This document shows positions 700-58,033 of a DNA stretch of 64,000 nt, one piece after another. Source of the stretch: Waddliaceae bacterium. Lineage in GTDB: Bacteria > Chlamydiota > Chlamydiia > Chlamydiales > SLFE01. The notes beneath the pieces are model-generated. The model worked only from the letters and a program-made list of their open reading frames with translations. It made no database searches and was not told where the DNA came from. A program made the translations under genes and the position numbers. The stretch is taken from NCBI GenBank assembly GCA_963783885.1, contig CAWAPJ010000028.1, positions 1 through 64,000 of the forward strand. Reading direction: 5' to 3'. How positions within the stretch are numbered: the stretch's first letter is position 1; every line of letters starts with the position of its first letter.

Positions 700-1599
700 T
701 TATAGAGGGGTTAATTGTTTTGTTAAAGTGCCTTGTTTCTGTAGAGACAAAGTATCAAGAAGAGCCAAAGGTTTGAGAAGATTTTTAATAAAACACAGTG
801 TTTCCCCATCCTTGTCGAGAAGCGGATTGTATTCCACAAGTTCAAACGCAGCCGGGGGATTATCTACGAAAAATTCCATCGCAGCGATGGCCTCCTCGCC
901 GTGAACACCATTAGGCACAGGCGTTCCTGTTCCCTTGCAGAAAGCCGGGTCGACCATATCCAGATCGAAGCTAACCCCATAGGCGGCTGTTCTTTCCGAA
1001 AGGATGTCTACGGCCTCTTTAAGAATGCAGTTCAGCCCCCGTTCGAATACCTCTTGGATAAAATATACCTTGACTCCAAGCTGTTTTGCCAGCTGCAGTT
1101 CCGCATCCTCAAAACTTCTTATGCCGATCAGAACGACATTCTGTGGTTTGACTTTAGGCTTTTCGCTCAAAATGGTTGTGAGGCGGCTGTCGCCATATCC
1201 CATTAGCGCTGCAAGGGGCATACCGTGGATATTGCCTGATTCACTTGTTTTGTGGGTGTGCATGTCCATATGGGCATCCATCCAGATCAGGCCAAGGCCG
1301 CCTGATTTTCTGTATCTCTTTGCAACTCCCGACCAAGTGCCGAGTGCTGTCGAGTGGTCGCCTCCGAAGGAAAAGAAGAATGGTGTTTCATAAGAAAGGT
1401 TCAAAGCTTCTTCAGCGTACTTGCTGTTAATGTTTGCGATATAGTCGAATTTGTCGCTTTCTATTTCATTCGCACTGACAATTTTTCTCCATGTCAGATT
1501 GGGGAAGCCAAGGTTTTTTTTCAAAAACTCTGGAGCTTCTCCGGAACCAAATATTCCTGCGCCTATTCCTGAACTCAATCCAATACAGTAGTGTTTCAT
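700..1599 (-). CDS. Arginase (ureohydrolase family)
   Basis: Motifs GGDHS, DAHMD, SGNIHGMP, SFDLDMVDP, GTGTP; likely start is MKHYC (ATG 1599) rather than TTG 1683. Confidence 0.9.
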   Translation of the reverse strand: MKHYCIGLSSGIGAGIFGSGEAPEFLKKNLGFPNLTWRKIVSANEIESDKFDYIANINSKYAEEALNLSYETPFFFSFGGDHSTALGTWSGVAKRYRKSGGLGLIWMDAHMDMHTHKTSESGNIHGMPLAALMGYGDSRLTTILSEKPKVKPQNVVLIGIRSFEDAELQLAKQLGVKVYFIQEVFERGLNCILKEAVDILSERTAAYGVSFDLDMVDPAFCKGTGTPVPNGVHGEEAIAAMEFFVDNPPAAFELVEYNPLLDKDGETLCFIKNLLKPLALLDTLSLQKQGTLTKQLTPL

Positions 1600-1764
1600 C
1601 GTTTGTCTTTTTTTAATTAAATAAAAATGAAAGCTTACTCCAGTCGTTTTTTTAACACAATTAAAAAAATTTTTTTGACACAAATCAAAATGAAAAACAT
1701 GGACTTAATTGTTTCATGATGACTATAATTTTTCGCATGAACAATTTATAAAAAGGGGTTCATT

Positions 1765-40533: not shown

Positions 40534-41367
40534 TTATAATCCCAGTAAAGATAAGGCATGATAAATAAGCATTCCATCAATATTCGGAATCACTTCAAAA
40601 ATCTCAAGATTCTCGTTATTCTTTTTTAATTGTGCCAATATTTTTTGAGAACTTTTGCAAAGATTGCGATGAGAAACATACAATTTTTTCAACCTCAAGT
40701 TTTGAAATTCAGTAGGGAGAGTTTTAAGCTGGGTATTTATCAGGTATAAGGATTTCAACTTTTTGAGTTTGCCTATTTCAGGAGGCAAGGATTTGAGAGG
40801 ATAATGTATTTTGAGAGTTTGTAATTCTGTGAAGTCTCCTATTTCAGGAGGAAGGTGCTCAGGCAGTTCAGAAGCGGAAAGTAACATGGGGAGATGAATC
40901 AAAGGCACTAGATTATGGTGTAAGTATCTCCTCCATCTCCCAGCCTCAACAAAATCGTTAGTACATTGAACAAAACCTCCGCCAATGAATTTTCTGGCAA
41001 ACTTGCAAAGGGCGACATCTTTTTTTTGTCTTATCTGATCTCAAACAACGGCAATGTTTGATTGAAGGGAAGCAGGAATTTCATAATCAATACATAGCCG
41101 GCTGAATTCACGATAATAATCCGAAAAAGGGATGTTAATCTCTTTAAAATTAAGTTCCGTAATATATTTTTTATAGAGTTTCACTATGTCACTTAAACGA
41201 GTGTCGACGATCTTTTTTACTTCATGGTTTACACATCTAAGAGAAAGTAAATCGGGCACATGTAGATACGAAAGTATCTCCAAAGAAATTTCAGGCGGCA
41301 GCGCGGAAGAAAAGTCAACACGCTTTTTTTCCGTTGTCATTATGTTATAAAATGTATTGGGTCCCAT
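40534..41367 (-). pseudogene. F-box + leucine-rich-repeat protein interrupted by one in-frame TGA
   Basis: F-box LPPEISLEILSYL..LRCVN (41041-41367) and LRR LPPEIG (40534-40908) are in the same frame with 44 open codons between; the only stop is TGA at 41041-41043. Confidence 0.8.
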
Positions 41368-43352: not shown

Positions 43353-44026
43353 CTATGCGCCCAAGAAACATCTCCGAGAGGAAATTGCAGGGGCTATGCG
43401 CGACATCTTCAACAGTCCCACGCTGACCGCAGCGGAGCAAACCGTTCGGGAAGTCTCGTGCCACTTCGCCAAGTCAGCACCCGAGTTCGTGTCGTGGCTC
43501 GACGAAAACATCCAGGAGGGATTGACGTGTTACCGGTTTCCTCAAAAGCACCGGAAGCGCATCCGAACCACTAACGGCCTTGAACGAGTCAACCGAGAGG
43601 TAAAACGCCGCACGCGCGTGGCCGTGTTGTTCCCCAATGCGCCGTCAGCACTGCGACTGGTTACAGCAGTGCTGATGGAAGTCCATGAAGAGTGGGTGAC
43701 TGGCAAGATGTACTTGGATATGACGATTGAAGATGAGATAAAGCGTCACGAATCGGTGGCTGCTATGTAAGTGTAAATGGAGCCTGAAAGATTTTTCGCG
43801 CAGCCAACCCTCACTAGCAAAGAGGCCAGCCGCAGACGTGCTGTCAAGGCCGAGCGAAGCAAGCCGAAGGGGAGCCTTGACAACACGTCAAGGCTGGCCT
43901 ATGCAGTTGGAGAGGGATGGATGCAGCAAAAATCTTGAAAGGCGATATCTGGCGTAATATTACGACCAGACAGGGACCGAAAACAACAAAGGATGATGGA
44001 ATTTACAGAAAAACAGTTGCTTTATC
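43353..44026 (+). mobile_element. IS256-family remnant (transposase C-terminus and right end)
   Basis: RIRTTNGLERVNREVKRRTRV..FPN; frame open back to the repeat junction; end AATTTACAGAAAAACAGTTGCTTTATC. Confidence 0.85.
43782..43943 (+). repeat. Long imperfect hairpin in IS256 3' end
   Basis: Arms GCCT..AAGATTTTT..AGGCCAGCC..GACGTG.TGTCAAGGC / GCCTTGACA.CACGTC..GGCTGGCCT..AAAAATCTT..AGGC. Confidence 0.85.
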
Positions 44027-46426
44027 GTGGCAATCGGCCACTCTCTTGAAATTCAACAAGCTCTAAAAGATACCCATTACTGCTTAAACCATGGTCAAAA
44101 TCTGGATCTTATGATTTTAAATATCGCGATAAGATGCTTGGTTACATTTTTACCGTTGAAATAAAAATTTCAATTATCTAGCTTTCAGATATTTGTATAA
44201 TCTTTTTTATGAATCGAAATGTCTTCTATCCGCTGCCCTAAAAAATCAGAAGTTATCTATCGACCTCGTAAACCTGAGAAAACGGTTCTTTTTGACGTCA
44301 TAAAAAGACACTACAAGACATGGTACAAAAACTCTGAAAACCCCATTCCCAAATACGTAGACAGGGAATTCCATAAGTATTTGGAATGCGGTATATTAGC
44401 TAATGGATTCGCTTGTGCTCATTGTGCTGACTGCAACAAAGACATTTTCATTGCTTTTTCCTGTAAAGGCCGGGGTATCTGCCCATCTTGCAACACACGA
44501 ACAATGGTTGAAACAGCTGCCCATCTTGTTGAAAATGTCATTCCCTCCATTCCCATCAGACAATTTGTAATCAGTTTCCCTATGCGGATTAGGCATTACC
44601 TTCAAACGTACAAAATCCTCCAGACCGTTTTAAATATTGTCGTCGATGAAATTCGAAAGAGACTTATCATCTGTAGTCCGGATATCGTATACCCGCAAAT
44701 CGGCATCATAAGCTTCATCCAGTATTTCGGAAAGACACTAAATTTCCATCCTCATTTCCATCTTATTGTGGCCGATGGCCTCTTTAGCAAAGATGGCAGC
44801 GATCTTCTCTTTCACGAGGCCTCTTTGACTCCCGATGATATTGCGGATACCCAGGATTGCATAAGAAAAAGAGTGCTCAGGTATTTCAAGACATGGTACA
44901 AAAACTCTGAAAACCCCATTCCCAAATACGTAGACAGGGAATTCCATAAGTATTTGGAATGCGGTATATTAGCTAATGGATTCGCTTGTGCTCATTGTGC
45001 TGACTGCAACAAAGACATTTTCATTGCTTTTTCCTGTAAAGGCCGGGGTATCTGCCCATCTTGCAACACACGAACAATGGTTGAAACAGCTGCCCATCTT
45101 GTTGAAAATGTCATTCCCTCCATTCCCATCAGACAATTTGTAATCAGTTTCCCTATGCGGATTAGGCATTACCTTCAAACGTACAAAATCCTCCAGACCG
45201 TTTTAAATATTGTCGTCGATGAAATTCGAAAGAGACTTATCATCTGTAGTCCGGATATCGTCATACCCGCAAATCGGCATCATAAGCTTCATCCAGTATT
45301 TCGGAAAGACACTAAATTTCCATCCTCATTTCCATCTTATTGTGGCCGATGGTCTCTTTAGCAAAGATGGCAGCGATCTTCTCTTTCACGAGGCCTCTTT
45401 GACTCCCGATGATATTGCGGATACCCAGGATTGCATAAGAAAAAGAGTGCTCAGGTATTTTGGGAGGAAGGGCTGGTTTGATAAGCAGACGATAAAACGA
45501 ATGCTCTCTAATGAAAACAGCGGCTTTTCACTCGATGCTAAAGTAAGAGTCCCCTCTTGGGATCGAGAAGGATTAGAGCGCCTGATAAGATACTGTGCCC
45601 GCCCTAGCTTTGCGAGCGAGAATTTGCGGTGGAATGGCCCTTGGATTCATTATCGCCTTCCAAAGCCTACTCACACAGGCAAAAGCTTTGTCCAGATAGA
45701 ACCCCTGGAATTTATCGAGAGGATTTCCCGATTCATTCCTCCTACCCGCCGACATCTCCGCCATTATCATGGAGTTTTTGCTCCTAATTCCCCTTTAAGG
45801 AAGAAGGTGGCTGCCAGCGCTCAAAAACGGCCAGAATCCAGCATCCAGAAAAATTTACAAGAGTCTTCAAAGAAGGTTATAAAGGTCTCATTCGACTGGG
45901 CTAAGCTCATCGCACGTATTTACAAAACTGATCCGTTGCTCTGTCAATGCGGAAAAAAGATTAAAATTACCTCATTTGTCATCCATACAGCTGAAATCAG
46001 ACGCATATTAAAACGAATAGGCTGGTCGAGCGAGATCCAGATGTTCGATCCGCCCTACCCTCCCCCTGAAATGAACATCTGCCAGCTGCTGCCCTGGACA
46101 GAGGATGGGTTTTCCCAGGTAGAAGATCGCACTCTAGGAGAATGGGGCCCAGATCCTCCAGCCATAGATCCGCCCCATTGGACAGACAACATCGACCCAC
46201 CTTTTTGGGAAGATTGAACCAAATACGATAATCTCTTCAGAAGGGGCTCGATACCTTTTGCTCTCATTCTCCCCCAAATCAGACATGTCTCTGCCAAAAT
46301 CTGGAAGTAAACCTAAAATTAACAATTTGAGGCTAATTATCGCTCAAAAATAAAGGAATTTAAGCCCACCCGTCCGACCATCCAAAGGGGGATAAGGGCT
46401 TAGACATGCTTAATTTTCCTATCCTT
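44027..46426 (+). mobile_element. IS91-family (rolling-circle, HUH/Y2) element, copy 1; left boundary approximate
   Basis: Zn-binding FSCKGRGICPSC, HUH motif FHPHFH, RLIRYCARP, RHYHGVFAPNS; right end TTAATTTTCCTATC resembles oriIS. Confidence 0.85.
44219..46217 (+). pseudogene. IS91-family transposase with internal duplication and +1 frameshift
   Basis: 44314-44886 repeated at 44887-45460; extra C near 45262 shifts the frame. Confidence 0.85.
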
Positions 46427-54888: not shown

Positions 54889-54986
54889 TTTTGTTTACGA
54901 CGATGGCTCTAAAATCTATAATGCCACCAGTTTACTTGGACACTGATTTGGGGTAAAATACCCAATCGTTTTCAAGGAGAAACACA

Positions 54987-55307
54987 ATGAGAACAACAGA
55001 TTGTACGGATAAGACAGTAAAGAGATGGAGCGCCAAACGAAAAGCAGAGGTTGTACTACGGCTTTTCCGAGGTGAGGCAATAGATGATGTCAGCCGCGCC
55101 GTAGGCGTGGCTGTTCATATCGTCAATGAGTGGCGAGAGGAAGCTTTGGTCCACCTTGAGGAAGGCTTTAAGCAGAGGGTAAACGATCCAAAGGACGCTT
55201 TGCTAGCCAGAGCTAAAGAGCAGATAGGTGAGCTGTCCATGGAAAATGAGCTACTAAAACGGCAGGTAAAAAAGAAAGGCCCTTTAGTATTGAGGAGGTC
55301 GAAGTAA
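54987..55307 (+). CDS. IS3-family transposase OrfA (HTH)
   Basis: RWSAKRKAEVVLRL..IGELSMENELLK; in-phase A-AAA-AAG slippery site at 55268-55274 gives a -1 fusion to OrfB. Confidence 0.85.
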   Translation: MRTTDCTDKTVKRWSAKRKAEVVLRLFRGEAIDDVSRAVGVAVHIVNEWREEALVHLEEGFKQRVNDPKDALLARAKEQIGELSMENELLKRQVKKKGPLVLRRSK

Positions 55308-56197
55308 TGAGCACCTCCAGCTCTTCATCAACTGGACGCGTATACGGATTACAGCGAGTCTGCCGGGTTTGGGGTATAACTCGCTCAACCGTCTACAACG
55401 CAAGAGCAAGAAAGCAAAAAGACACCGTTACAAGAAAGCCGGGACCCACTCCTTGGATGGCTGATGAAGACCTCCTTGAGTGGATTCGTAGTGATATTGA
55501 AGAGAGTAAGTTTACGGGCGAAGGACACCGGAAAGTATGGGCTCGATTGAGGCGGAATCATGGGATCAGCGTAGGGAGAAACAGGATTTTGAAACTTATG
55601 AGAGAGGCTAATATTCTATCTCCACATCGCAGTTTCCAAGGAAAGGCAAAAAAACATGATGGCAGAATCGTGACAGATGTTCCCAACGATATGTGGGCAA
55701 CAGATGCAGTAAAGATCTGGACCGAGGATGATGGATGGATTTGGTACTTCGGTGTCACTGACCACTGGAATTCCGAGTGTCTTGGGTGGCACGTCACCAA
55801 ACGTGGCGATCGACACGCTGCGATGGAGGTGTTACGAAATGCTGTAAGGTCTGGTTGCGGAGAGCTAATGCCAGGTATCGCTAGAGGGATCAGTCTAAGA
55901 CCAGATCATGGATCGGTCTTCACAGCCAATGAGTATCGGAATGAGGCTAAATACTGGGGCTTTAACTTTAGCTATGCCTTAGTAGGCGAGCCTGAAACCA
56001 ACGGGGTGGAAGAGCGATTTCATCGAACGATGAAGGAGCAATGTGTGCATGGTCGAGTTTTTAAAAATCTTGATGAGGTCAGACGAGCCATTCAGTCATT
56101 TGTAGAGGATTATAACAATGAATGGTTACTTGAGAAGCTAGGCTACTGCAGCCCTAGAGAAGCTCGCCAAAACTGGGAGTTTAAATATGCAGCATAA
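55307..56197 (+). CDS. IS3-family transposase OrfB (DDE integrase core)
   Basis: MWATD, RPDHGSVF, PETNGVEERFHRTMKE, LGYCSP. Confidence 0.9.
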   Translation: MSTSSSSSTGRVYGLQRVCRVWGITRSTVYNARARKQKDTVTRKPGPTPWMADEDLLEWIRSDIEESKFTGEGHRKVWARLRRNHGISVGRNRILKLMREANILSPHRSFQGKAKKHDGRIVTDVPNDMWATDAVKIWTEDDGWIWYFGVTDHWNSECLGWHVTKRGDRHAAMEVLRNAVRSGCGELMPGIARGISLRPDHGSVFTANEYRNEAKYWGFNFSYALVGEPETNGVEERFHRTMKEQCVHGRVFKNLDEVRRAIQSFVEDYNNEWLLEKLGYCSPREARQNWEFKYAA

Positions 56198-56362
56198 GAG
56201 ATTTAACAAAACTCTTAAGACGCAACCGATGGAAGGCAAAATTGCTAAGGGCAGCGATGAAGTCCAGGACGAGCGAAGCGAGCCGAAGGGAATCCTTGAC
56301 GAATCGCTGAACTTAGCTAGAGTCCGACATGGGAGGCGGCTTGAGAGGTTTGGAAAAATCTC
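56198..56362 (+). repeat. Long imperfect hairpin in IS3 3' end
   Basis: GAGATTT..GCTAAG..CAGCGAT..GTCCAGGA / TCCTTGAC..ATCGCTG..CTTAGC..AAATCTC; apex shared with 43843-43881. Confidence 0.8.
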
Positions 56363-56405
56363 ACCCTTAAGCCAAATTTGTGTCCAAATAAATGGTGGCG
56401 ATACA

Positions 56406-56620: not shown

Positions 56621-57340
56621 GAATTTATCGAGAGGATTTCCCGATTCATTCCTCCTACCCGCCGACATCTCCGCCATTATCATGGAGTTTTTGCTCCTAA
56701 TTCCCCTTTAAGGAAGAAGGTGGCTGCCAGCGCTCAAAAACGGCCAGAATCCAGCATCCAGAAAAATTTACAAGAGTCTTCAAAGAAGGTTATAAAGGTC
56801 TCATTCGACTGGGCTAAGCTCATCGCACGTATTTACAAAACTGATCCGTTGCTCTGTCAATGCGGAAAAAAGATTAAAATTACCTCATTTGTCATCCATA
56901 CAGCTGAAATCAGACGCATATTAAAACGAATAGGCTGGTCGAGCGAGATCCAGATGTTCGATCCGCCCTACCCTCCCCCTGAAATGAACATCTGCCAGCT
57001 GCTGCCCTGGACAGAGGATGGGTTTTCCCAGGTAGAAGATCGCACTCTAGGAGAATGGGGCCCAGATCCTCCAGCCATAGATCCGCCCCATTGGACAGAC
57101 AACATCGACCCACCTTTTTGGGAAGATTGAACCAAATACGATAATCTCTTCAGAAGGGGCTCGATACCTTTTGCTCTAATTCTCCCCCAAATCAGACATG
57201 TCTCTGCCAAAATCTGGAAGTAAACCTAAAATTGACAATTTGAGGCTAATTATCGCTCAAAAATAAAGGAATTTAAGCCCACCCGTACGACCATCCAAAT
57301 GGGGATAAGGGTCTTAGACATGCTTAATTTTCCTATCCTT
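56621..57340 (+). mobile_element. IS91-family 5'-truncated copy 2
   Basis: Near-identical to 45708-46426 with a few differences in the non-coding end. Confidence 0.9.
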
Positions 57341-58033
57341 TTGAGTGTCGGATATGCTTTAGATCATGCTATTTACCTGATTAATGGCGGTTATCTCCCC
57401 GGAACTTTCGTTGGCGGGGTTGAGTCTCCTCTCTCATCGCTTGTCTATAACGCATGCTCGCGATCTGATGAAATGTCATATTCCGGTCGTTACGTCCCTT
57501 TTTGCAAAGAGTCAGACGGCTATCTACTCGGGGAAGGGTCGGCAATGTTTGCTATTGAGACATATGCTGCTGCATCTAAACGAAGCCACCCTGCTTTATC
57601 CAAAATCAATGGATTAGGGATTGCGCATTCTCTTTCAGTTTCTATTCAGAATTGTTTGAATGACGCAGAGGTTAAGCCTGAAGACGTGGATTGCATTTTT
57701 CTTGCCGCCTACGGCTCGCCCCGTCTGGATGCTCAAGAAATGTGCGAGCTTGAAAAAGTATTCTCATCTTGCAATAATCTCTATTTAACAACAACAAAAC
57801 CCCTTTATGGCCATCTACTGGGAACCGAATTTTCCATTGAAATGCTTGTGGCTATCGAAGCTTTGAAACATCAAAAAATACCTTGCGCCCTTTTTTCAGA
57901 ACATGAGCTCCTGACCCCAAATTTTGGCAAACTTGTTGTCGACCATGCCATCGAGGCTCGGCTGAATCTTGTTCTTGTCTATGCATTCAACCCGCAAGGC
58001 GGAAGCATTAGCGTCTTGCTTGGCAAGGTATAA
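57338..58033 (+). pseudogene. 5'-truncated beta-ketoacyl synthase / chain-length-factor-like gene
   Basis: VGGVES, PFCKESDGYLLGEGSAMF, DAQE, KPLYGHLLG; N-terminal half missing at the IS91 junction. Confidence 0.75.

Follow-up and report, generated by a model that had tools for sequence, protein, structure and literature searches.

In plasmid F, the Frpo element transcribes the leading genes and primes DNA synthesis (PMC9849209, PMC11541004). Small DNA hairpins of the GCGAAGC, GCGTTAGC and CCGAAGG types are reported at the primase origins of the phages G4, St-1 and alpha3 and at the ssiA site of RSF1010, and SSB, a protein that binds single-stranded DNA, is reported to bind such mini-hairpins poorly (PMC13037366). 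For ISCth4, an insertion sequence (IS) of the IS256 family, the right terminal inverted repeat is described as the donor and the left one as the recipient, and replication turns the figure-eight into a circle (PMC7780238). Here we describe a hairpin cassette of ~150-165 nt that occurs twice in a stretch of 64,000 nucleotides from a Waddliaceae bacterium of the Chlamydiota (assembly GCA_963783885.1, contig CAWAPJ010000028.1, positions 1 to 64,000 of the forward strand; hereafter the window), once in the remnant of an IS256-family element and once in a complete IS3-family element. We propose, with a probability of roughly 40%, that this cassette acts as a promoter or priming site formed by a hairpin of single-stranded DNA (ssDNA), similar to Frpo and to single-strand origins (sso), and that it has been reused by copy-out/paste-in IS. 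As between a signal at the level of RNA and one at the level of ssDNA, the evidence leans towards ssDNA.

Fold, strand and promoter-like geometry

Both hairpins lie on the sense strand of a transposase gene, between its stop codon and the right inverted repeat (IRR), as a reading of the sequence alone had proposed. Copy 1 (43782..43943, plus strand, 162 nt) stands at the 3' end of the IS256 remnant, and copy 2 (56198..56362, plus strand, 165 nt) begins 1 nt past the stop codon of orfB in the IS3 element and ends ~10 nt short of its IRR. The two ~160-nt structures described in that reading are present: copies 1 and 2 reach -88.3 and -69.3 kcal/mol with RNA parameters (z-scores -8.5 and -7.6, equalled by none of 200 shuffles), while the DNA folds give -49.3 (z -9.2) and -33.1 (z -5.8) for the top strand and -47.2 and -22.8 for the bottom strand. 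Each hairpin ends in a tip of 39 nt (43843..43881 in copy 1 and 56262..56300 in copy 2, both on the plus strand), in which, as written for copy 1, an 8-bp closing stem GTCAAGGC/GCCTTGAC encloses the mini-hairpins GCGAAGC and CCGAAGG. The tips agree at 34 of 39 positions, the figure given earlier; among the five differences, tip positions 8 and 32 change jointly from C-G to A-T, the compensatory exchange that had been pointed out, and an A to C change at position 4 costs copy 2 a pair. A 20-nt core of the tip has two matches in the window against 0.00 expected and six in the whole genome (2.16 Mb, 46 contigs), where the reversed control pattern has none. The arms had been said to differ in sequence and yet to pair, and similarity outside the tip is indeed undetectable (z 0.87 and 0.99), which rules out homology between the arms of the two copies; their bases are alike over ~8 nt only. 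A covariance model built from 31 diverse copies, R1, matches the window at 43823-43901 (E 2.3e-14) and 56242-56319 (E 6.1e-12) and found no divergent extra copies in the genome beyond the six.

Pairing and covariation exceed those of shuffled sequences, in line with the earlier suggestion of a module selected for its structure. In an alignment of 31 sequences with diverse arms, the share of pairing cells is 87.7% and falls to 76.4% on shuffling, cells with changes on both sides number 79 compared to 27.1, and the covariation score amounts to 0.321 compared to 0.116, a value that none of 500 shuffles reached; in slid controls the paired share drops to 21-44%. Among 35 copies of the Acidobacterial type, compensatory changes affect 6 of the 26 pairs of the consensus, and at several pairs nearly every copy has G-U. 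The tandem mini-hairpins, called 'rabbit ears' in the sequence-only reading, are invariant in the sets collected by exact match. In chlamydial copies found with the model, the first ear changes from GCGAAGC to GCGTTAGC, GCTTTGC or GCCTTTAGGC, with exchanges in loop and stem, and the second from CCGAAGG to CTGAAAG or CCCGAAGGG, with its stem going from CC/GG to CT/AG. Since these variants preserve the hairpins, the ears are real helices.

The two strands are not equivalent. When the tip is replaced by a neutral loop, the arms of the GCGAAGC-bearing strand fold better than those of its complement at 24 of 31 loci with RNA parameters and at 25 of 31 with DNA parameters, including all five copies from IS256 and IS3. 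G.T oppositions number 94 on the GCGAAGC strand and 56 on the other, a difference whose p-value overstates the effect, the loci being related. The clearest exception to the strand bias is L087, a long hairpin just past a tRNA gene and in reverse orientation. Within the closing stem, covariation is confined to the inner half (C-G, U-A, A-U, G-C/C-G) and is never seen in the outer half, GTCA/TGAC. The 5' side of the outer half has changed without compensation, by an inserted base in many Acidobacterial copies and to GTCC in window copy 2; on the 3' side, only changes of TTGAC to TTTAC or TTTAA occur, in four lineages and again uncompensated. Such behaviour, uncompensated and without covariation, is as expected of a -35 box that is read as sequence.

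The spacing that follows TTGAC points in the same direction. The 3' arm of copy 1 holds TTGACA, a 17-nt spacer and TATGCA in an internal loop (43877..43905, plus strand), and that of copy 2 TTGACG, a 16-nt spacer and TAGAGT, which is unpaired in the fold (56296..56323, plus strand); the latter stretch is listed by a sigma-70 scan with 9 of 12 matches. In both IS481-family copies described below the arrangement is TTGACA-16-TAAAAT. Over 31 representatives, positions 6-18 after TTGAC are unpaired in 6-16% of cases and positions 20-24 in 39-55%. A hexamer with A at its second and T at its sixth position follows TTGAC at a spacer of 16-18 in 26 of 45 distinct 3' arms; the corresponding counts are 2 of 34 for the opposite strand and 6 of 45 for a spacer of 22-24. 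TA opens this hexamer in 10 of 15 arm families, which we defined ourselves and which are partly related, against a background of 0.047.

Carriers, neighbours and distribution of the cassette

Copy 1 had been assigned to an IS256 element. The family assignment stands, while the element is not intact: the 124-aa open reading frame (ORF) at 43396..43770 (plus strand, stop codon 43768-43770) matches the Transposase_mut profile PF00872 with E 3.9e-25 at profile positions 277-378 of 379, and because it covers only the last quarter of the transposase profile, we regard it as a remnant of which this C-terminal ORF and the right end remain. That end is a terminal repeat of 29 nt, GGAATTTACAG...GCTTTATC (43998..44026, plus strand), which matches the termini of chlamydial and metagenomic IS256 relatives. 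Copy 2 belongs to a complete element of 1,489 bp (54917..56405, plus strand) with orfA at 54987-55307, orfB at 55307-56197 (stop codon 56195-56197) and an IRR at ~56372-56405 that matches the left inverted repeat (IRL) over ~34 nt. The repeated unit takes in the hairpin and 43 nt more, ending in the IRR, and five of the six core copies in the genome are this one IS3 element, 99.5-100% identical to each other. The hairpin thus lies inside the terminal repeats and is inherited with the IS3 and IS256 elements. Contigs from four metagenome DNA runs hold the same IS3 with its hairpin, and in these contigs no joint skipping the hairpin was found. One foreign metagenome contig matches the tip span of copy 2 alone (56262..56300), with different flanks. 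The IRL of the IS3 starts with TATAAT (54917-54922), which scores as a promoter together with TTTACG in the flank (10/12) and could provide the -10 half of a junction promoter in a circular form of the element. Just downstream of the IS3, a 244-aa ORF (57299-58033) represents a truncated beta-ketoacyl synthase gene, its match being limited to the end of the N-terminal and the greater part of the C-terminal domain. ORFs with leucine-rich repeats and an F-box adjoin at 40534-41367 on the minus strand; they are eukaryote-like and typical of intracellular symbionts, which agrees with a chlamydial origin.

The module had been described as common to unrelated IS families, and it extends to at least two lineages of IS256, two lineages of IS3 and to IS481. 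Four metagenome contigs (L178, L185, L190 and L246) contain the long hairpin 80-94 nt downstream of full-length IS256-type transposase genes and on the same strand. The transposase of L178 is 73% identical to the window remnant and that of L246 47%, with 55% between L178 and L246. In all five IS256 elements the hairpin stands between the stop codon and the conserved terminal repeat. Their hairpins have in common the outer boxes (a T-run followed by GCCAACCYT, which pairs with RGGGTTGGAT...) and the tip and differ in the middle of the arms; between L185 and L246, one T-A pair has changed to C-G and one mismatch has become a pair. R1 matches 6 of the 151 genomes sampled from the phylum, G000 among them; the sample includes a genus of ~25 species with genomes of 1.0-1.2 Mb in 1-2 contigs. 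In one of these genomes (G047), a second element of the IS3 family is present seven times. Its OrfB and that of the window IS3 are 30% identical; the hairpin, with a variant tip, begins 30 nt past the orfB stop and inside the element, as identity among the copies continues for ~75 nt beyond it. In another (G107), the hairpin lies ~107 nt past the 3' end of an IS481-type gene and on the opposite strand, a layout found again in metagenome contig L210, where the transposase is 63% identical and the arms are visibly related. Three further chlamydial matches have IS256-like flanks, with no transposase ORF confirmed on their contigs. Because the outer boxes of the arms are conserved, the hairpin looks vertically inherited within IS256 and within IS481. 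IS110 was considered as a further carrier and rejected: several copies have an IS110 transposase gene nearby, but its orientation varies (same strand at 211 nt in L182 and L245, convergent at 57 nt in L192, ~390 nt away in L194 and L241), and we read this proximity as adjacency, perhaps through targeting, and not as cargo.

Relatives without the hairpin were looked for and found in both families of the window. Five chlamydial IS256 relatives that are 63-71% identical to the remnant do not have the segment of ~200 nt, and in four of them only ~60 nt separate the stop codon from the terminal repeat. The fifth of them, L148, retains a shorter hairpin at this position, in which a similar GGCCAGCC stem is present and the tip is absent. 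Alignment gave no support to the idea that, in IS256, the hairpin had replaced the codons that originally formed the C-terminus of the transposase. Relatives of the window IS3 in genome G255 (54% identical, same IRR) lack such a hairpin as well. One of seven hairpin-less IS3 copies there (L137, C1:1441543 region) contains ~80 additional nt between orfB and IRR, bordered by a direct duplication of 26 nt, which makes this gap a site of insertions, too. Other hairpins with GCGAAGC-type tips occupy the gap between stop codon and IRR in other chlamydial IS. Among the occupants of this gap is a second hairpin family whose tip contains CCTCAC...GTGAGCGAAGCC...GGGG (L126 in G268, L164 in G201 and L156 in G254). 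The hairpins of L126, in an IS3, and of L164, in an IS256, are alike over ~95 nt including the arms, with compensatory changes, and represent the same kind of sharing across families by a different module.

Stand-alone copies, which had also been called for, exist beside genes for ArdC, methylases, integrases and excisionase-like proteins. Five Acidobacterial genomes contain the commonest type, which measures ~170-260 nt, in 1-2 copies each and with differing surroundings. Upstream of the stand-alone copies and on the opposite strand, the first gene to which a Pfam type could be given encodes ArdC in three distinct versions (L241/L196, L191 and L203), and elsewhere a D12 methyltransferase (L194), a tyrosine integrase (the L065 cluster), an HTH_17 protein (twice, L197 and L236) or, at the Yanofskybacteria copy L029, a pilin of a type IV secretion system. 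In L241 the ATG of ArdC stands ~133 nt from the core with GGAGGG ahead of the start codon, and the gene reads away from the hairpin. Establishment-type genes placed upstream and on the opposite strand are the arrangement that an ssDNA promoter requires. Genes downstream on the same strand are mostly cargo-like (subtilase, Fic, extracytoplasmic function sigma factor, PBP1). At a Deltaproteobacterial copy, L012, there is a weak match to Rep_trans downstream.

The module is not confined to the two window copies, and its tip core occurs in many phyla. A scan of one genome per species gave at least 117 stretches with the 19-nt core, and among the matches listed the hosts are Acidobacteriota, Planctomycetota, Saccharibacteria and other candidate phyla, Actinomycetota, Bacillota, Pseudomonadota and one archaeon of the Thermoplasmatota. 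Short hairpins whose closing stems differ from that of the window make up most of the genome stretches listed; long hairpins, closed by the window's stem GTCAAGGNC...CCTTGAC, account for about a dozen. In addition, 72 metagenome contigs match a search pattern of core plus TTGAC, and nearly all of them fold as long hairpins. Eleven viral contigs hold the core. In six of jumbo-phage type (L251-L253 and L257-L259, 147-235 kb), it tops a GGCC...GGCC hairpin that is followed by a T-run and then by TTGACT-17-TATACT; judged by its sequence, this is a compact terminator-promoter junction with a near-consensus promoter. The short form, with its other closing stems that are often preceded by ...CCTGAGC, is multi-copy in Halotalea (L046, L051, L058, L059 and L114) and Terricaulis (L023, L044, L066 and others), and it forms inverted doublets ~50 nt apart in Planctomycetota (L016, L060, L097 and L115), similar to REPINs. 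The core looks like a general hairpin cap that several lineage-specific repeat families have reused. In G003, from the family of the window genome, a core-like hairpin with two mismatches (L007, ~1500-1660, minus strand) abuts the 3' end of a tRNA gene in reversed orientation and is preceded by three tandem 28-nt repeats. The metagenomic copies L200 and L220 are near-identical except that L220 is shorter by ~16 nt of the 3' arm, so that its tip retains a single arm, a natural allele with an arm deletion. Rfam 15 has no match in the whole window at the gathering score, and for seven hairpin loci (26,771 bases) at E <= 1 it returned only tRNA and two unrelated sub-threshold matches. Searching open full text for the core as a sequence string yielded unrelated primers and no description of it, and a keyword search for IS-borne hairpins in the open literature found nothing.

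A proposed promoter on single-stranded DNA and its rivals

How could one cassette serve such different hosts? In the mechanism that we favour, the GCGAAGC-bearing strand would fold back on itself whenever it is single-stranded, with the tip of two ultra-stable DNA mini-hairpins nucleating and capping the fold. Closing stem and 3' arm would then rebuild a duplex promoter in which TTGAC resembles a -35 box, ~17 bp of helix follow, and a loop that begins with TA is already open where a -10 would be expected. The 3' arm would act as non-template and the 5' arm as template strand, so that RNA polymerase would start inside the hairpin and exit over its 5' flank. In integrative and conjugative elements (ICEs), the genes for ArdC, methylase, integrase and excisionase-like proteins that lie upstream on the other strand could be transcribed early in this way, comparable to the role of Frpo in plasmid F. 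In IS256, IS3 and IS481, the same RNA might prime synthesis of the complementary strand on the strand that is circularised in the figure-eight and thereby help to convert it into a double-stranded circle. A promoter rebuilt by a folded single strand of DNA would, as one function, account for the fold, the strand bias, the stable tip, TTGAC, the helix length, the TA loop, the duplex beyond the loop and the neighbouring genes. Binding of RNA polymerase, transcription or priming, and the identity of the IS strand that becomes single-stranded are parts that we infer. Regarding the latter, the donor end known from ISCth4 implies that the strand with its 3' end at the IRR would be the sense strand of the transposase gene. 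The hairpin-bearing strand is this sense strand in IS256 and IS3 and the antisense strand in both IS481 copies; as orientation differs by family, a rule for the DNA strand fits better than one for the mRNA, and for IS481, with its reversed orientation, the other end would be expected to be the donor.

Several observations weigh against this proposal. Queried by blastn with both window hairpins and one Acidobacterial copy, the F region 52,000-67,000 (NC_002483) gave no sequence similarity to the F leading region, the best E being 0.13 compared to the published BLAST criterion of E 1e-6. The cassette is absent from 72,556 plasmid records, in which one match at chance level (E 0.4) was all that appeared. 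Of the ~14 distinct upstream-opposite genes with a Pfam type, six do not belong to mobile genetic elements (MarR, PilZ, CHASE3, tetratricopeptide repeat and others). Constancy of TTGAC is forced by the search pattern in the metagenome set and is informative in the other sets alone, and the families behind the TA count are of our own making. The -10-like hexamer is weak in many copies; TATGCA of copy 1 has no T at position 6 and fails a simple sigma-70 scan, and promoter-like sites near the IS3 copy occur at background (5 found, 2.8 +/- 1.5 expected). Since the jumbo-phage contigs use the core as the tip of a terminator, it also serves at the RNA level. To our knowledge, no free single-stranded IS circle has been established as an intermediate when IS3 or IS256 transposes.

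Alternatively, the cassette could combine a 3' hairpin acting in RNA with an ordinary double-stranded promoter that points outward, as a portable terminator or insulator plus promoter. The hairpin would stop or protect the 3' end of the transposase mRNA and shield the IRR from read-through, while TTGAC...TA would fire outward and, in an IS circle, across the IRR-IRL junction into the transposase gene. We consider this, the main rival, possible, though on balance doubtful. It agrees with the location on the sense strand 1-30 nt past the stop codon in IS256 and IS3, and the G.U bias of the top strand is equally expected of RNA. The junction of hairpin, T-run and promoter in jumbo phages speaks for it as well, as does a copy in Saccharibacteria (L062) in which the core hairpin is directly followed by TTGACA-16-TACAAT. 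Junction promoters are known for copy-out/paste-in IS (PMC7780238), and the IRL of the window IS3 offers a TATAAT; the mismatch at -10 would, in addition, prevent the palindrome from making a second, inward promoter. However, the IS copies have no T-run after the hairpin, and no terminator-like site is called there. This also rules out a canonical intrinsic terminator at either window hairpin, a type represented solely by the short form of the jumbo phages. The IS481 hairpins are antisense, which would place the weaker strand in the mRNA and direct the promoter into the gene. Many stand-alone copies are located between divergently oriented genes, where there is no upstream transcript to terminate. 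The loop types are noted for their stability in DNA and are not GNRA or UUCG. Finally, two functions are required where one function of ssDNA suffices.

The near-identity of tips on unrelated arms raises another alternative, namely that the 39-nt tip (inverted ends of 7-8 bp around a 23-nt core) is a selfish nano-element, mobile or inserted by gene conversion into hairpin loops that were already there. The space from stop codon to IRR would be no more than a tolerated landing place and the tip functionless for its host element. Among IS256 lineages with a transposase identity of 47-55%, the tips show one difference in 39 positions, hairpin-less relatives exist in chlamydial IS256 and in the IS3 of G255, and L148 has kept a shorter hairpin without the tip. 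The same gap is used by other hairpins, one of them common to the IS3 of G268 and the IS256 of G201, and the foreign contig matches the tip alone. We nevertheless regard a selfish tip as improbable. Neither a target-site duplication nor a pair of empty and filled but otherwise identical sites was found, and the four metagenome runs contain no hairpin-less joint. Copy numbers are low, at 1-2 per Acidobacterial genome and six here, all inside IS, and no candidate for a mobilising enzyme travels along. The fixed distance between tip and TA loop and the conserved outer boxes in IS256 also speak against it; because of them we regard the whole hairpin as one selected unit.

The sequence-only reading had named, as the first of its options, a hitch-hiker recognised by an HUH enzyme and placed an IS91 transposase beside both copies. 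An IS91-family (Y2 HUH) transposase gene does lie ~280 nt downstream of copy 1, at 44219..46217 on the plus strand; by its Pfam matches it consists of two overlapping frames, with ORFs of 380 and 335 aa that each hold part of the Y2_Tnp domain, and it is probably frameshifted. We judge it to be outside the module. Only one of the four places in the genome with IS91 genes (PF04986) adjoins a hairpin, <1 kb from copy 1, and none is near the other four IS3 copies; copy 2 is ~10 kb away, so that the claim for both copies was wrong. Processing by an IS91-type Y2 or IS200-like Y1 enzyme, comparable to that of repetitive extragenic palindromes (REPs) and REPINs by RAYT transposases, would suit the inverted doublets of the short form in Planctomycetota but is very unlikely and essentially excluded, as IS91 is near one of six copies, the sole Y1 transposase gene is on another contig (C10) far from every copy, no Y1 or Y2 domain occurs among the neighbours scanned in other genomes, which are DDE or DEDD transposases or ICE-type genes, and copy numbers are far below those of REPs.

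Even if the hairpin acted at the RNA level, it would be a portable regulatory cassette selected for its structure, absent from Rfam and common to IS256, IS3, IS481 and genomic islands across phyla. If the ssDNA promoter or priming site is real, the circularised IS strand and its priming would become directly testable. Promoters of the Frpo type would then be known far outside enterobacterial plasmids, and R1 could serve as a marker, in sequence and structure, for the leading regions of ICEs in uncultured phyla. One portable DNA structure would thus tie the early expression of ICEs to copy-out replication of IS. It is a less secure step, and one we would call unlikely so far, to see in the cassette a new class of ssDNA promoter or origin that spans phyla, is nucleated by rabbit ears and lets ICE-like elements transcribe their anti-restriction, methylase and integrase genes from the strand that enters. 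On that view, the cassette would be the first element of this replication type described within an IS, and it would provide a handle on which strand is copied out.

Comparison with known systems

REP/REPIN, ERIC and Correia elements are likewise imperfect non-coding palindromes that fold as hairpins, sometimes within transcripts, and the short form of the core resembles REPs and REPINs in being multi-copy in Halotalea and Terricaulis and in forming inverted doublets in Planctomycetota. The long form, in contrast, has a low copy number, no linked RAYT and a conserved tip rather than conserved ends. It also lacks the terminal repeats of a parent IS and a target duplication, and its tip is the same across phyla, whereas REP families are lineage-specific. 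With all six copies of the genome inside IS and its single Y1 gene on another contig with no copy nearby, the cassette was not classed as a REP or REPIN. A miniature inverted-repeat transposable element was rejected as well: neither hairpin is flanked by a clear direct repeat, the bases are alike over ~8 nt, and Acidobacterial genomes contain 1-2 copies. Junction promoters (Pjunc) and other outward promoters similarly place a promoter element at the right end of IS3 or IS256, pointing outward (PMC7780238), but the known ones are split between two terminal repeats, whereas the cassette is a 160-nt hairpin located 10-80 nt inside the IRR.

Closer parallels are offered by the sso of rolling-circle plasmids and by minus-strand origins or single-strand initiation (ssi) sites of ssDNA phages and RSF1010, strand- and orientation-specific hairpins at which RNA polymerase or primase makes a primer for the complementary strand. 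Mini-hairpins of the types GCGAAAGC, GCGTTAGC and CCGAAGG are reported at the sites of G4, St-1 and alpha3 and at ssiA (PMC13037366). Those elements serve replicons with an obligatory ssDNA stage, whereas the hosts of the cassette are DDE-type IS and ICE-like regions, and the weak Rep_trans match at L012 is the sole sign of a Rep gene linked to it. The Frpo/ssi promoters of conjugative plasmids (Frpo1 and Frpo2 of F, and those of ColIb-P9) are long, bulged hairpins of one strand that rebuild a -35 and a -10 (PMC9849209, PMC11541004). The F Frpo2 region folds, in our computation, as a hairpin of ~310 nt (z -7.35). Like Frpo, the cassette would drive genes on the 5' side of the folded strand, and genes for anti-restriction and methylation adjoin its stand-alone copies. 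Frpo lies upstream of T-strand-encoded leading-region genes near an oriT; the neighbours of the stand-alone copies may point to such a position, and the IS copies do not fit it. The cassette differs from Frpo in being about half as long with a weak -10, in having its -35 in the closing stem under a GC-rich double mini-hairpin tip instead of an A/T-rich apex, and in occurring in Chlamydiota, Acidobacteriota and other uncultured lineages and inside IS. In conclusion, although it is not a member of these groups by sequence, the cassette appears to work most like the Frpo, ssi or sso elements.

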